The notes beneath the pieces are model-generated. The model saw nothing but the letters and a program-made list of their open reading frames with translations. It searched no databases and was not told the origin of the DNA. A stretch of 64,000 nucleotides of DNA from Dictyostelium discoideum (Eukaryota), in assembly GCA_000004695.1 (NCBI GenBank), contig CM000151.3, positions 5,216,001 through 5,280,000 on the forward strand. Direction: 5' to 3'. Positions within the stretch are counted from its first letter, which is position 1. Each line of letters starts with the position of its first letter. The position numbers were made by a program, and so were the translations under genes. This document shows, piece after piece, positions 14,828-38,753 of the stretch.

Positions 14828-19376
<4,549 letters not shown>

Positions 19377-20395: not shown

Positions 20396-22691
20396 ATGAG
20401 ATTATTATTATTATTAATTTTAATAATAACAATTAATTTTAGTTATGGTGTATTAACACCTAAAAATTTAGCAGGTGAAGCAAGTGAATTTGGTTCATTT
20501 AATATTCCAAATCCAATGGATGTAGCACAAAGTAGTGATAGTTCATTATTTGGTATTTCAATGACACAAAGCCAATTGAAAAATTCATTTGAATGGTCAG
20601 GAGTTGTACCAGTTGATTCAGAAGAAGAATTTACATTAACATTCTTTTCAAGTTTTCCATTAAGTGAATTTAAAGTTGAAGCATCACCAAAAACTTCATT
20701 ATCATCTTCCAAATCAGAATCAGAACATAAATCAAAATTCTATAAGGTGATTAAATCAATATATCAAACACCAACCGTTACCAATGGTTCATTTGGTATT
20801 GATGGTGCAACAACTCCATCATTTAGTTTAACATGGGATAAACCAGTTGTTGGAGATTGGAATGTTGTAATCACAGCCTCATCATCATTAAGAAAGAATG
20901 AAAAATTCCAAAAGATGGTAGAAGATTCAACACCTCAATTGTTAATGTTGGTTCAAAATCCAAGTGATACTCATATCTACTCTTATGTATCATCATACAA
21001 TAATTTATTCACAGGTCAAAAAGTATCAGTTTTAGCAATGCTCCACAAGAAGTCAGAATTCATTAAAAAGTCTTCTGCCAATCGTCCACTCAATTGGAAA
21101 CCATCACCAATTTTATTATCAGATGTTTCAGCAGAGATGATTTTAGGTTTACCAGATGGTTCAAAAGAAACTATCCCAATGTTTGATGATGGTCTTCATG
21201 ATGATGAACAAGCAAATGATGGTCTTTTCGGTGGTTACATCAATGTAAGTGAATTGGGTAATTATGACCTTCAAGTAGTTTACAAAGGTTCTCAAAATGG
21301 TAATGGTGTAATTCGTTCAAATCAACATCTCATTCCAATAACTTCTCAATATTTAGAATTAACTGGTGAAGTTCAATCAGTTCAAGATGGTGATGCAAAT
21401 TTAAATATCTATTTCATTGTCAATAGTCCAAACCAAACCACTGTTGATCAAACACCAGTACATGTTTATTCAGAAGTTTATGGTACTGATGATGATGGTA
21501 AAAAAGTTGCAATTGCTTGGGTTGCCGGTGTTACATCAGCTCAACCAATTCAAGGTTCAACCACTACTTTTGCACTCTCTGCAGTTCTTAATGAACGTTG
21601 GATCGCCAAAGTTGGTGCAACCGCTCCATTCTTTGTAAAGAATGTTCAAGTCTCTGATTTGGATACTTTTATTCCACTTTCAAATACAACATCAACATCA
21701 AATGTTAAAATGGTTGGTGAATATAAAGATGTTCGTACAATTGTTCATTCTCCACCACTTCATGAAATCACCAAAGAAATGAGAGATGGTAAAATGCCAA
21801 AAGAATTGGCTGATCGTATTGGTAAATCAACTGGTAATGGTAAATTAATTCTTACACATGGTTATTGTAGTGAAGGTGTTTGGCCAATTGAGGATTTTGA
21901 AAATTCTGTAGAGTTCCAAGATTTTAATCAAAATCGTGGTAATGATGAATTTGCTCAAATACTTGCCAATTTCGGTAGCCAATATACCGATGGTTTTTCA
22001 CTTGTTGCTCATAGTCAAGGTGGTAACGCTGCTCTTCACCTCGTAACATTCTATTTCAGTGGACTTGATCTTTCTCAAAAACTTGAAGGTCGTGTCATTC
22101 AATCAATGGGTACTCCATACCAAGGTACTGCTCTCGCTGGTACTTGGGCTTCTATTGGTAGTGCTGTAGGTGTTGGTTGTTCTGCAAATGATGATCTCAC
22201 TGTTGATGGTGCCGCTTTATGGTTAAAATCAATTCCAGCAGATAAAAGAGCTTTAGTTTATTATACAACTACTCAATATAGTACTGGTTCTTTAATTAAT
22301 TAGTAAGTTTAACTTTTTTAAAAAAAAAAAAAAAATTTTAATAATTAATATTAACAATTTATTTTATTAATTTTTTTCCTTTAAACAGTTGTAATTTGGC
22401 TTCCAATGCAGTCTTAGAATGGCCAAATGATGGTGTTGTTGATAATGAGGTTTGTATTTTATTTACTTTAAACTATAAATTTATAACGAATATATTTTAA
22501 ATATTAACATTTTATACTCTCACCAAATTTTTATTAAATAATAATTAATTAATTAATAGCATACTCCACTCGAAGGTGGTGTATATTTAAATAACTTTAA
22601 AGACTGGTGTCACTCTGATGGTATGCACTCACCACAACAAACTACAAATACTGAATATAACAAAGAAATGAGTTCCAACTCTGTTTGGTAA
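20396..22691 (+). CDS. Secreted protein with C-terminal lipase class 2 (alpha/beta hydrolase, AHSQGG nucleophile elbow) domain. Exons 20396..22302, 22389..22449 and 22560..22691.
   Basis: The N-terminal signal peptide is MRLLLLLILIITINFSYG. The C-terminal region reads LILTHGYCSEGVWP...FSLVAHSQGGNAALHL, an A-H-S-x-G-G lipase_2-type motif. The track ORF is terminated by the first intron's TA|GTAAGT. Two short 3' exons follow: aaacAG|TTGTAAT..GATAATGAG|GTTTGT, then aattaatAG|CATACTCC...TGGTAA. These add ..YCNLASNAVLEWPNDGVVDNE and HTPLEGGVYLNNFKDWCHSDGMHSPQQ..SVW*. Confidence 0.7.
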
Positions 22692-23345: not shown

Positions 23346-24349
23346 ATGACAGTTGTAACAGTATTTGGTTCAACAGGTTCACAAGTAAGTTTTAATTCTT
23401 TTTTTTTATTTTTATTTTTATTTTTAATTTATTAATATATATATATATATTTTTTTTATAAAAAAAAAAGGGAGGTTCAGTTGCAAGAGCATTACTTAAA
23501 GATGGATTTAAAGTTCGAGCATTAACAAGAAATCCAGAATCAGAAAATGCTAAAAAGCTTCAAAAAGAGGGTGCTGAAATTGTTAAATGTGACGATGCCG
23601 ATCCAAAAGAAGTCATTGAAAAAGCATTAAAAGGAAGTGATTCAGTATTTTGCGTTACCAATTTCTGGGCTTATTTCGGCAAGGAATTAGAGTATGGTTT
23701 AAACATTGCACACGCAGCATTGGCAGCAGGCGTTAAACATTTTGTATTCAGTGGTTTGGCACCATGTAATAAGATTTCAGGAGGAAGATACAATGTACCA
23801 CACTTTGATTTGAAGCATAAAATTGAAGAGGAGCTAAGAAAAATGTCTAAAGAAAATCCAAGTTTTGTAACTTCCTTTGTTTACGCTCCATTTTATATGC
23901 AAAATTTTAAAACTTTCTTTGCACCAAAACGTACTGTCAACGAAGCCACTCAAGAAGTCACATATGTATTGGGCATGCCATTGAATCCTAAAATGTTGCC
24001 ATTGGATATGGGCGATATTAATGATATCGGTTCAATCGTTGCTGTAATGATGAAAGATCCAACTAAATACTCTGGTAAAATCATTCCATTCTCAGGTGAC
24101 TGTTTACATGGTGAAAAGATCGCTGAAATTATGTCAAAAGTAACTGGTAAGAAAGTTGTTTACAATTTCATTGAACCAAAAGATTTTGCTCAATTCGATT
24201 TCCCAGGTGCTGGTGAAATGGCTGAAATGTTTTCTTATTACAATGAATTTGGTGCATTTGATAAATTAGATAAAACTGAAGCTTCAAAAATTACAAAATT
24301 AACAAATCTTGAAGAATTTTTGAAAAAAACTAATTTTCAACTTGAATAG
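23346..24349 (+). CDS. NmrA-like family NAD(P)-binding protein (atypical SDR, HSCARG/isoflavone-reductase-like). Exons 23346..23384 and 23471..24349.
   Basis: The 39-nt first exon encodes MTVVTVFGSTGSQ (a Rossmann GxxGxxG start) and ends at a GTAAGT donor. The acceptor aaaaaaaaAG|GGAGGT continues GGSVARALLKDGFKVRALTRNP..., in frame with the ORF at 23720..24349. Confidence 0.8.
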
Positions 24350-24465
24350 TTAAATATGCCATATTTATTTTAAACTTATTTTAATATACAAATAAATAAT
24401 TAAAATAAATAATTTAAAGTTTTTGGTAAAAAAAAGTAATGTTATAATTTTTTTTTTTAATGTTG

Positions 24466-24496
<31 letters not shown>

Positions 24497-24499
24497 AAT

Positions 24500-24853
24500 T
24501 TAATTACAACCACATTGAGTTGGTTGACCACCTCCATTCATTGATCCATTTCCACCGACACTAACTCCGATATTTGCATTTGGTGCACCACCACCACCCA
24601 AAACACCATCTAATAAACCACCAAGTAAACCTTTACTTCGTCCTAAAACATCTCCCAATAAACCAGAACTTGAGCTTCCTCCACATGAAATACTATTTGA
24701 TGCAGCACTAACAGTTGAAAGGGAACCAGTAGTTCATTGCTTTGGGTTTGATAATGTAATTATTGATGCTTTTTTAATAATTTAAATATTTAGTACTTGA
24801 TTTATAAAATAAAAAAATTAATATAATATAAAAACCTTACCAATGATTGTCAT
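24500..24853 (-). pseudogene. hssA/B-like (HssA/2C/7E family) small Gly/Ser-rich protein gene carrying an in-frame TGA. Exons 24841..24853 and 24500..24778.
   Basis: On the minus strand, ATGACAATCATTG|GTAAGG encodes MTII. The acceptor ttattaaaaaAG|CATCAATAATT continues ASIITLSNPKQ, then TGA, then TTGSLSTVSAASNSISCGGSSSSGLLGDVLGRSKGLLGGLLDGVLGGGGAPNANIGVSVGGNGSMNGGGQPTQCGCN*. The MTI.. start, internal CGG and terminal CGCN are hallmarks of the hssA/B-like family. No alternative splice removes the TGA. Confidence 0.45.
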
Positions 24854-25461
24854 TTTTAATTTTTATTTTTTAAATAATATTTTGATTTATAAAATAAAAT
24901 ATAATTTTTTTTTTTTCTTTTATACCTTTTTTTTTTTTTTGAAAAAAAAAAAAAAAAAAAAAAAAAAAGATTAATTGAATAGAGTAAACAAAATAATTTA
25001 AAAAATGGAACCATTTATAAATTAAATACCAACAGGTTTATAATTATTTAGTTAACCATGAAATTATTGTATTTTTATCTGGAAAAAACTTTTAAAACAA
25101 TTATTATTACTTTTTTTTATTAAAATACAACACACCCACAAAAACTTGTAAAAAATAAATTTTAATTTATATAAAAAAAAAAATGTTGAAGATAATTTTA
25201 AGATTTATACTATTTTATTACAGATTTGGTTGGATATTTTGAATTAAGTGATAGTTTAAAATTATTTTTTTTATATTTAAAGATGAGATAATTTGTTTAA
25301 TATATGGTTATTGTTATTCGAAAATTATTGTTGGTTTAAAAAACAATAACATTGAAATTATAACAAAAACAAAGTGTTATGGATTAATAAAGTATTTAAT
25401 TTAAAAGATCTTTTTTTTTTATAAATGGTATTCAAAATTAAAATTAATTTAATTTACAGTT

Positions 25462-27217: not shown

Positions 27218-28505
27218 ATGACAATTGATTGGGACTCAATTCTTAGCTATAACACAATCAAAGTGGTTCGTATAAGAGACCGACGGCTTGGGTAATTTTT
27301 TAAATTTTAAAAGAGTTAATTCATTTTTATAAATTAAAATCTAATAAAAAAAAAAAAAATTTTAAAAAAAAAAAAAAAATAGAATTTTACATTTATGTTT
27401 TTTAATAGTAATTGTATTATATGTTGTTGTTTATTCGGCGATTATTAAAAAAGGTTATGTTACAACTGAAGAACCTGTTGGCTCAATTAGAACTTCATTA
27501 TTGGCTCCAGATGAATTAAAATCAAATCAAGCATATTGTAAAAATAATACAGAACCATATCCATATGAAAAATTAGATTGTGTTTATTATGATGAGAAAT
27601 TAGCTCTCTTTCCCATTGGTGATGATGTTGGATTTACGGCTTCCACTAGGATGAGAATTTCAGATCAAACCGTAAATTGTAGTTTAATGAATCCATCTTG
27701 TAAATTTTATACCAATACATCAATGAATGTTTATTTAGCAGATATTGAAAGTTTTACAGTTTTAATTGATCATACAATGTATGCACCATCTTCTCAAATT
27801 CAATTTAATGGTGATGATTTAAGTGGATATGTTTTAGATCAAAATGGTAATGAAATTCAATTAAATGAATCTGTAAATACAATTGGTGTTCAAGGTAAAC
27901 CTGATATTTTACAACTTGGAAAATTATTAGAATTTGCTGGTGTTGATTTAGATGGACCTTGTAAGTTTTTTTTTAAAGAAAAAAATAATAATAATAATAA
28001 AATTATTTATTTATTTATTTATTTTAATGTATTATATATAATAATAGCGTTAGTAAATTCAAGTAATTCAATTAGATATGATGGATGTGTTTTATTTGTA
28101 TTTATTGAATATTCAAATACATTTTCATATGATTTAAAAAAGATTAAATATGTTTATTCAATTAAAAAAGTTGATGATACTGCTTATGATGTACCAGAAG
28201 TTATTATTTTAAATAATGAAAATTCAAGATTATATTATAAACGTCATGCAATTAGATTAATTTTCATTCAAACTGGTGTAATTGGTTCATTCAATTTTCA
28301 ATCATTACTTTTAACATTAGTTAGTGGTCTTGGTTTATTAACTGTATCAACTTTAATTGTTGATCAATTGGCAATTAGATTTTTACCACAAAGAAAATCT
28401 TATAGTTCACTTAAATTCCAAACAACTGAAAGTTTTAGAATGAAAAAAAAAATTGTAAATGATGATGGTGAAGATAAACTTTATCATAATATTGAAGCTC
28501 TATAA
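27218..28505 (+). CDS. P2X receptor family protein (ATP-gated channel), paralog 1. Exons 27218..27291, 27383..27960 and 28048..28505.
   Basis: Exon 1 encodes MTIDWDSILSYNTIKVVRIRDRRLG, the diagnostic P2X N-terminus. The donor CTTGG|GTAATT and acceptor aaaatAG|AATTTTACATTT give GILHLCFLIVIVLYVVVYSAIIKKGYVTTEEPVGSIRTSL (TM1). The Cys-rich ectodomain follows (..CKNNTEPYPYEKLDCVYYDE..NCSLMNPSCKF..). A CCTT|GTAAGT...ataatAG|CG intron leads to TM2 and the C-tail. All phases were checked. Confidence 0.8.
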
Positions 28506-30567: not shown

Positions 30568-31567
30568 AAAAGCCAAATCAATTTAATGGTAATGAATCAT
30601 ATTGTAAAAATAATGCAAAACCATATCCATATGAAAAATTAGATTGTGTTTATTATGATGACGCTTTAGCTCTCTATCCTATTGGTGATGATGTTGGCTT
30701 TACGGCGTCCACTAGGATTGAAATTTCAGATCAAAAGGCAAACTGTAGTTTAATGAATCCATCTTGTAAATTTAAAACCTTTAACTATAGTAATGTTTAT
30801 TTAGCAGATATTGAAAGTTTTACAGTTTTAATTGATCATACAATGTATGCACCATCTTCTCAAATTCAATTTAATGGTGGTGATTTAAGTGGATATGTTT
30901 TAGATCAAAATGGTAATGAAATTCAATTAAATGAATCTGTAAATGTAATTGGTGTTGAAGGTAAACCTGATGTACTTGAAATTAGTAAACTTTTAGAATT
31001 TGCTGGTGTTAATTTAGATGATCCATGTAAGTTTTTTTTTTTTTTTTTTTTTTTTTCTCAAAAATTATTAAATTTAAAAAAATAATTAATAATAATAATT
31101 ATATTATAGCATTGACAAATTCAAGTAATCCAATTAGATATGATGGATGTGTTTTATTTGTATTTATTGAATATTCAAATACATTTTCATATGATTTGAA
31201 TAAAATTAAATATGTTTATTCAATTAAATTAGTTGATGATACAATTTATAATATACCAGAAGTAGTAATATTAGATGATGTAAATTCAAGATTATATTAT
31301 AAACGTCATGCAATTAGATTAATTTTCATTCAAACTGGTGTAATTGGTTCATTCAATTTTCAATCATTACTTTTAACATTAGTTAGTGGTCTTGGTTTAT
31401 TAACTGTATCAACTTTAATTGTTGATCAATTGGCAATTAGATTTTTACCACAAAGAAAATCTTATAGTTCACTTAAATTCCAAACAACTGAAAGTTTTAA
31501 AATGAAAAAAAAAATTGTAAATGATGATGGTGAAGATAAACTTTATCATAACATTGAAGCTCTATAA
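30210..31567 (+). CDS. P2X receptor family protein, paralog 2 (tandem duplicate; 5' end and start codon unresolved). Exons ?..30263, 30357..30480, 30573..31026 and 31110..31567.
   Basis: This copy is about 80% identical to paralog 1 across exon 1 (..DSILAYNTIKVVRIRDRRLG), intron 1 and the downstream exons (GILHLIFMIAIISYVVIYSAIIKKGYLSIEEPVGSIRTSLWS | PNQFNGNESYCKNNAKPYPYEKLDCVYYDD..). It has one extra phase-0 intron (AGT|GTATGG..aaaaAG|CCAAAT). The in-frame ATG at 30151 is followed by TAA at 30202 before the conserved block. Confidence 0.65.
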
Positions 31568-31684
31568 ATAATAATATTAATAATAATACTTTTAATTTTA
31601 ACTTTTTTCCAAATAATTCTTGTGTTTTATAAATTTTTAATATTTAAATAAACTATTTTTTTATGTAATTCTAAAATAGTTAAA

Positions 31685-38548: not shown

Positions 38549-38753
38549 TTTTTTTATTTTAATATATTGTCATCTTTCTTTTTTTTTTTTTTTAATTTCT
38601 TTTTTTTAATTAATATAATAATAGTTTAATAATAATAATAGTTTAATAATAACAATAACAATAATAATAACAATAATAAATAGTAATAAATAGTAGTATC
38701 AAAAAAAAAAAAATAATAATAATAGCAAGATTTAACACCTTTTTTAGTAATAG

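Follow-up and report, generated by a model that had tools for sequence, protein, structure and literature searches.

The question raised by this locus is whether a gene that carries the hallmarks of the Dictyostelium hssA/B family, but runs into a TGA codon shortly after its start, is a dead copy, a gene that gets around its stop by splicing or recoding, or an intact gene hidden by an erroneous or private base in the reference. The locus lies at positions 24500 to 24853 of the window, by which we mean the whole stretch of 64,000 nucleotides that was analysed. Direct reading of the minus strand revealed an hssA/B-type layout, consisting of exon 1, a 72-nt GT..AG intron and exon 2, with the following features.

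24853-24841, minus strand: exon 1, ATGACAATCATTG, 13 nt, coding for MTII and the first base of codon 5; the family signature
24840-24769, minus strand: canonical phase-1 intron, GTAAGG...AAAAAAG, 72 nt, 90% A+T, by direct reading
24768-24500, minus strand: exon 2, 269 nt including the TAA at 24502-24500, with a Gly/Ser-rich body, SCGG and the C-terminal QPTQCGCN
24736-24734, minus strand: in-frame TGA, codon 16, seen as TCA on the plus strand at 24734-24736

The spliced translation is MTIIASIITLSNPKQ*TTGSLSTVSAASNSISCGGSSSSGLLGDVLGRSKGLLGGLLDGVLGGGGAPNANIGVSVGGNGSMNGGGQPTQCGCN*, and the frame beyond the TGA is open all the way to the TAA. The exon 1 sequence ATGACAATCATTG occurs only once in the window, the G+C content of which is approximately 22%, and the opposite strand holds no overlapping gene at the locus but only low-complexity ORFs of at most 52 aa. 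The original prediction had described a 13-nt first exon encoding MTII, an internal CGG (found here as SCGG), a terminal QPTQCGCN and a TGA at codon 16 of the spliced message, and direct reading confirmed all of these elements. Its measurements need correction, as the intron is 72 nt long rather than roughly 60 nt, the stop lies about 10 nt away from the position of about 24745 at which it had been placed, and the stop-repaired protein counts 93 aa instead of 88 aa.

The sigN/hssA/2C/7E family has been described as 96 genes encoding proteins of less than 120 aa, with expression in prestalk cells and possible secretion, and in 89 of the 96 genes exon 1 contributes an ORF of 13 nt, a single short intron follows, and the remainder lies in exon 2 (Vicente et al. 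2008, PMC2257962). The window locus has this same gene layout (13 + 72 + 269 nt, with a short A/T-rich phase-1 intron), and its 93-codon conceptual reading has the expected kind of product, i.e. shorter than 120 aa, rich in Gly and Ser, with a few Cys and a CGCN end. With the stop masked, the conceptual product matched Pfam PF05710 over residues 1-92, covering profile positions 1-90 of 90, with a score of 40.6 bits (E = 4.8e-10) against a curated cut-off of 21.4. This score and the 13-nt exon 1 layout bear out the proposed membership in the large hssA/B multigene family. The best relatives in the databases are Dictyostelium proteins with PF05710, including HssA/B-like protein 25 (Q553K1). When family proteins were used as queries in tblastn, a single matching locus was found in the window (E = 1e-26 to 9e-35), and neither tblastn nor a search with the exon 1 sequence detected a second hssA/B family member within it. 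What the locus does not share with the family is an uninterrupted frame: it has a TGA where all seven relatives examined encode Ser, and this stop precludes a family protein. Because the frame is broken at codon 16, the locus is classed as a pseudogene derived from the hssA/B family and not as a functional member. A literature search found no paper connecting hssl genes with pseudogenes.

The genes surrounding the locus in the window are the following.

15573-19376: guanylyl cyclase gene gcA
20396-22303, plus two small exons: cmfA, conditioned medium factor
ending at 24349: NmrA-like gene, the convergent neighbour
27501-28505 and 30591-31588: P2X receptor genes, tandem duplicates

The cmfA exons of the window are 100% identical to the AX4 CMF (P34090), and CMF identity is 99.2-99.5% for other D. 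discoideum isolates, 97% for D. cf. discoideum, about 91% for D. citrinum and 84% for D. firmibasis. As judged from its sequence, the window comes from chromosome 2 of an AX4-type D. discoideum, the same chromosome that carries hssl25. CMF orthologs served to retrieve the syntenic regions from five further genomes, all of which have the order gcA-cmfA-NmrA-(hssl)-P2X-P2X in common with the window.

At the site between the NmrA-like and P2X genes, D. cf. discoideum ACTFIY carries a syntenic ortholog of the window copy (GCA_054859205.1, L010:14480-14856, minus strand), which is an intact annotated gene encoding 101 aa; its codon 16 is TCA (Ser). The gene is built of a 13-nt exon 1, a 71-nt intron with the position and ends of the 72-nt intron of the window copy, and 293 nt of exon 2. 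The exon 1 letters are identical in the two copies, as are the N-terminus MTIIASIITLSNPKQ and the C-terminus NGSMNGGGQPTQCGCN, and the DNA identity of the two loci is approximately 84% over 1 kb. Around codon 16, the ortholog reads CAA TCA ACC and the window copy CAA TGA ACT. In six paralogs from three other genomes, codon 16 is TCA (3/6) or TCT (3/6), always in the context ...SNPKQSTTGS.... The 13-nt exon 1 layout is present in all seven related copies, and the paralog introns measure 65-88 nt with 87-95% A+T. By this alignment, the lesion is one coding-strand C>G transversion that changed Ser16 from TCA to TGA. It had been foreseen that a single change of the TGA would repair the frame, and the ancestral codon can now be named as TCA, found in the ortholog and in three paralogs, with TCT in the three others; the alignment to other hssl genes that had been proposed as a check gives Ser as the expected residue in the ortholog and in six of six paralogs.

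The closest named paralog in AX4 is hssl25 (DDB_G0275819, Q553K1; PF05710), on chromosome 2. The first 27 residues of its product are the same as those of the window copy except for the stop and one L/V difference, and both have a Gly/Ser-rich body with a CGCN end; BLASTP puts their identity at 55%, the alignment at 77%. Unlike the window copy, hssl25 is intact, encodes 96 aa and is found at a different locus, and its counterparts in other species lie in a gene neighbourhood different from that of the window locus.

Several gene models of these relatives deserve a remark of their own. In D. cf. discoideum ACTFIZ, the annotated 134-aa model P0005 (L003:10001-10816) appears to be spliced past its canonical stop, and is probably an annotation error; the standard model, with a 13-nt exon 1 and a 69-nt intron, yields 103 aa and the PCPCGCN end seen in its relatives. 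Two further family copies were found outside the list of called genes, about 0.9-1.1 kb downstream of annotated paralogs, one being intact and 97 aa long (L003:11159, plus strand) and the other a divergent copy of 72 aa without the Cys-containing C-terminus (L001:10891, plus strand). An old 108-aa model of hssl25, P0007 (UniParc UPI00004E46F4), has its exon 1 read into the intron, giving MTIIGKFFFFLIFFCF..., and matches sigN142 on chromosome 2 in the supplement of PMC2257962 (49 + 277 nt, 43-nt intron, 108 aa). Given this match, a modelling artefact accounts for one or more of the seven non-canonical members in PMC2257962.

Can the stop of the window copy be bypassed by splicing? The original prediction had found no alternative acceptor that skips the TGA. 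Enumeration of all single GT..AG introns that keep the frame open between the ATG and the TAA gave seven, all of which combine the canonical donor with a downstream in-frame AG; taken literally, the statement is thus wrong, although none of the seven is credible as a splice site. They are AGs inside conserved coding sequence, and the introns that they would close have 67-76% A+T, compared to about 90% for real introns of the family. The first of them is as follows.

24680-24679, minus strand: cryptic in-frame AG, closing an intron of 162 nt with 76% A+T; product MTIIGSSSSGLL...

The product of this acceptor is an archived 63-aa model, P0001 (UniParc UPI0000006D5A). It represents the same locus and matches the window with 100% identity, the Asp, Arg and Asp residues specific to the window copy included. 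It differs from the canonical model by dodging the TGA through the 162-nt intron, which ends in conserved coding sequence. If this splice were used, the locus would be a working gene with a longer intron (donor 24840, acceptor 24680-24679) encoding the 63-aa protein MTIIGSSSSGLLGDVLGRSK...QPTQCGCN. Such a splice would be GT..AG, in frame and open to the family C-terminus, a gene finder has once output exactly this model, and the 2008 family list does contain short members of 43-70 aa (PMC2257962). Against it, the context of the acceptor, AAATAGTATTTCATGTGGAG, is coding-like and without the A/T-rich tract seen in eight of eight family introns, and neither the length nor the composition of the intron (162 nt, 76% A+T) falls within the range of these eight (65-88 nt, 87-95%). 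The intron would moreover swallow 90 nt, i.e. 30 codons conserved in the ortholog and in six paralogs, among them the sole N-terminal Cys, and the cryptic site would face competition from the canonical acceptor at 24770-24769, which is strong and intact. The 63-aa model was not found among the current NCBI and UniRef AX4 proteins, and the window locus is likewise missing from the table of 96 genes in Vicente et al. (PMC2257962), which lists the old 108-aa model of hssl25 but has no chromosome-2 entry with 63 aa or a 162-nt intron. A working gene of this form is thus exceedingly unlikely. We regard UPI0000006D5A as a gene-finder artefact that arose from the avoidance of a genuine stop, and the locus as better treated as a pseudogene.

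The stop might also be bypassed during translation. D. discoideum has the selenocysteine machinery and a few selenoproteins, and the frame past the TGA is fully open, as decoding of the codon, by selenocysteine insertion or by stop-codon read-through, would require for a full-length product of 93 aa. A selenoprotein would be expected to have a SECIS element in its 3' UTR and Cys or Sec in its relatives. An Rfam scan of 23800-25400 (E <= 10) returned three chance-level matches and no SECIS, no ATGA quartet occurs in the approximately 150 nt that separate the TAA from the convergent NmrA-like gene, and the homologous position is Ser in every relative, never Cys or Sec. Leaky termination is known for the context TGA-C, whereas the base after this TGA is an A. 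Decoding of the stop is therefore almost certainly not how this locus works.

The stop is not the only damage that distinguishes the window copy from its relatives. Compared to the ortholog and the paralogs, the window copy has two 12-nt in-frame deletions, the first of which takes out the xKFG motif found in six of six relatives and the second of which falls in a Gly/Ser repeat; the ACTFIY ortholog keeps both the SKFG and the GSGS blocks. Furthermore, three Gly residues are replaced in the window copy by Asp, Arg and Asp, at positions where the ortholog has Gly and where Gly is kept in five or six of six relatives. With the remnants of the gene in two other isolates as the reference, which is possible in the 3' half, the Arg and the second Asp were found to have arisen on the AX4 branch.

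The overall divergence from the intact ortholog nevertheless still looks constrained at the sequence level, with 12 synonymous and 9 non-synonymous differences and a dN/dS of about 0.24. When the changes were polarised with the paralogs, the window lineage showed approximately 5 synonymous changes versus 3 missense and 1 nonsense, which is indistinguishable from the lineage of the ortholog. The low dN/dS and the similarity of the polarised counts to those of the ortholog therefore indicate that the decay is recent. A rate-based test of relaxed selection was set aside, the counts being too small to discriminate, and the argument for relaxed constraint rests on which residues have changed and not on rates.

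The two isolates mentioned above, D. discoideum ACTFIW (L012) and ACTFIR (L013), share a 667-bp deletion with identical breakpoints, corresponding to 24640-25306 of the window. Lost with it are the upstream region including the promoter, the whole of exon 1 and of the intron, and 129 nt from the start of exon 2; the corresponding positions are L012:14429-14432 in ACTFIW and L013:14343-14346 in ACTFIR, and there are no gene calls at the locus in either genome. In what is left of the 3' part there are additional indels: GGT-repeat expansions, a gap of 18 nt in ACTFIW and, in ACTFIR, a frameshifting gap of 10 nt. By comparison of these alleles with the window copy, the deletion is a second, independent null allele of the gene; as the TGA codon lies inside the deleted segment, the deletion alleles carry no record of the order of the two events. 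Neither D. firmibasis nor D. citrinum has a homolog at the corresponding position. The window gene is thus a lineage-restricted duplicate which, among the genomes compared, is present at this site only in D. discoideum and its relative D. cf. discoideum; it has been inactivated in at least two ways within the former and stayed intact in the latter.

These observations also bear on the sequence or strain variant that had been offered as the other branch of the original prediction. Under this reading, the TGA would be a base-calling or assembly error of the reference, or a mutation private to the axenic laboratory lineage, and the natural allele would be an intact 93-aa gene. The TGA and the ancestral TCA do differ by a single base, and the upstream elements, the splice sites and the rest of the frame are intact. 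However, the archived model, which was based on the reference, skips exactly codon 16 by means of a poor acceptor, which implies that the TGA was already part of the deposited reference. Besides the stop, this copy has five lineage-specific lesions at conserved positions, and the locus is also dead in ACTFIW and ACTFIR, the only further genomes of D. discoideum that were retrieved. Repaired alleles with S, L, W, C, R or G at codon 16 had no exact match in a collection of 15 billion proteins, a weak negative in view of the fact that the ACTFIY ortholog is missing from this collection too. This branch thus retains a small probability and is an unlikely explanation of the stop. The pseudogene branch, in contrast, is supported by the ancestral TCA, by the added lesions and by the deletion in the two other isolates. 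In our assessment, the locus is very probably a young pseudogene of the hssA/B (sigN/2C/7E, PF05710) family on chromosome 2 of AX4-type D. discoideum, in which Ser16 has changed from TCA to TGA.

Other searches for the locus had the following outcomes. Three alternative models of the locus had no match in an exact look-up in the 15-billion-protein collection, and a scan of metagenome contigs with a degenerate 26-mer gave no match. The Logan contigs that contain cmfA are only about 2 kb long and end before the window locus.

In contrast to ACTFIW and ACTFIR, in which it is deleted, the region upstream of the gene is apparently intact in the window. Alignment with the ortholog and the paralogs delimited the following elements.

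24854-25290, minus strand: upstream region, apparently intact, from the alignment with the ortholog and the paralogs
24926-24917, minus strand: GGTATAAAAG, common to the ortholog and paralog promoters
25075-25054, minus strand: AAAATACAATAATTTCATGGTT block, common to the ortholog and paralog promoters
25140-25131, minus strand: G/T-rich box TGTGGGTGTG, common to the ortholog but not to the paralog promoters

A long T-run upstream of the gene is likewise found in the ortholog and paralog promoters. The region 24854-25290 may act as a promoter, and the AAAATACAATAATTTCATGGTT block and the G/T-rich box TGTGGGTGTG are candidate shared regulatory elements. The AAAATACAATAATTTCATGGTT block, about 200 nt before the ATG, is nearly invariant between the window locus and the paralogs of three genomes, and the G/T-rich box lies about 280 nt before the ATG. 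Sites for the G-box-binding factor have been discussed for the sigN family in PMC2257962.

With its upstream blocks intact, the pseudogene may still be transcribed, and these elements would leave room for residual expression. Splicing of the transcript would use the canonical sites (24841|24768), and translation would stop after 15 residues, MTIIASIITLSNPKQ, from which no family-type protein would result. Junction-dependent decay of the transcript would not be expected, because the stop is situated 33 nt downstream of the sole exon junction. That the AX4 allele is not silent after all, and acts through the 63-aa isoform, through the 15-residue MTIIASIITLSNPKQ peptide or through a regulatory or decoy transcript for hssl25, whose 5' coding region the window copy closely resembles at the protein level, is very unlikely.

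The copy is very probably disappearing through the ordinary birth-and-death turnover of a highly redundant family. Its loss would be tolerated thanks to the size and redundancy of this family: single CRISPR knock-outs of six members gave no developmental phenotype (PMC8554618). The pattern of turnover agrees with this lack of phenotype in single family knock-outs, and the locus offers a small, clean example of birth and death, with an intact gene in D. cf. discoideum, a nonsense allele in AX4 and a half-deleted allele in two isolates. Events of this kind are familiar, and the locus itself has already been recorded, in the form of a mis-spliced model in the archives. Its significance is therefore mainly a matter of annotation hygiene: the locus should be handled as a pseudogene and the 63-aa UniParc model as an artefact.

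Some minor observations were made elsewhere in the window. The two P2X genes show approximately 89-93% DNA identity to each other's counterparts in related genomes, and the ORF listings of both read through an A/T-rich intron. Between 40001 and 46000, the GC skew is strongly negative, with -0.38 at 40-42 kb and -0.44 at 44-46 kb, and the highest G+C content of the window (0.305) is also found at 44-46 kb. Finally, a short low-complexity stretch at 38607-38724 shows approximately 80% identity to many unrelated Dictyostelium loci and is probably a codon-repeat tract.
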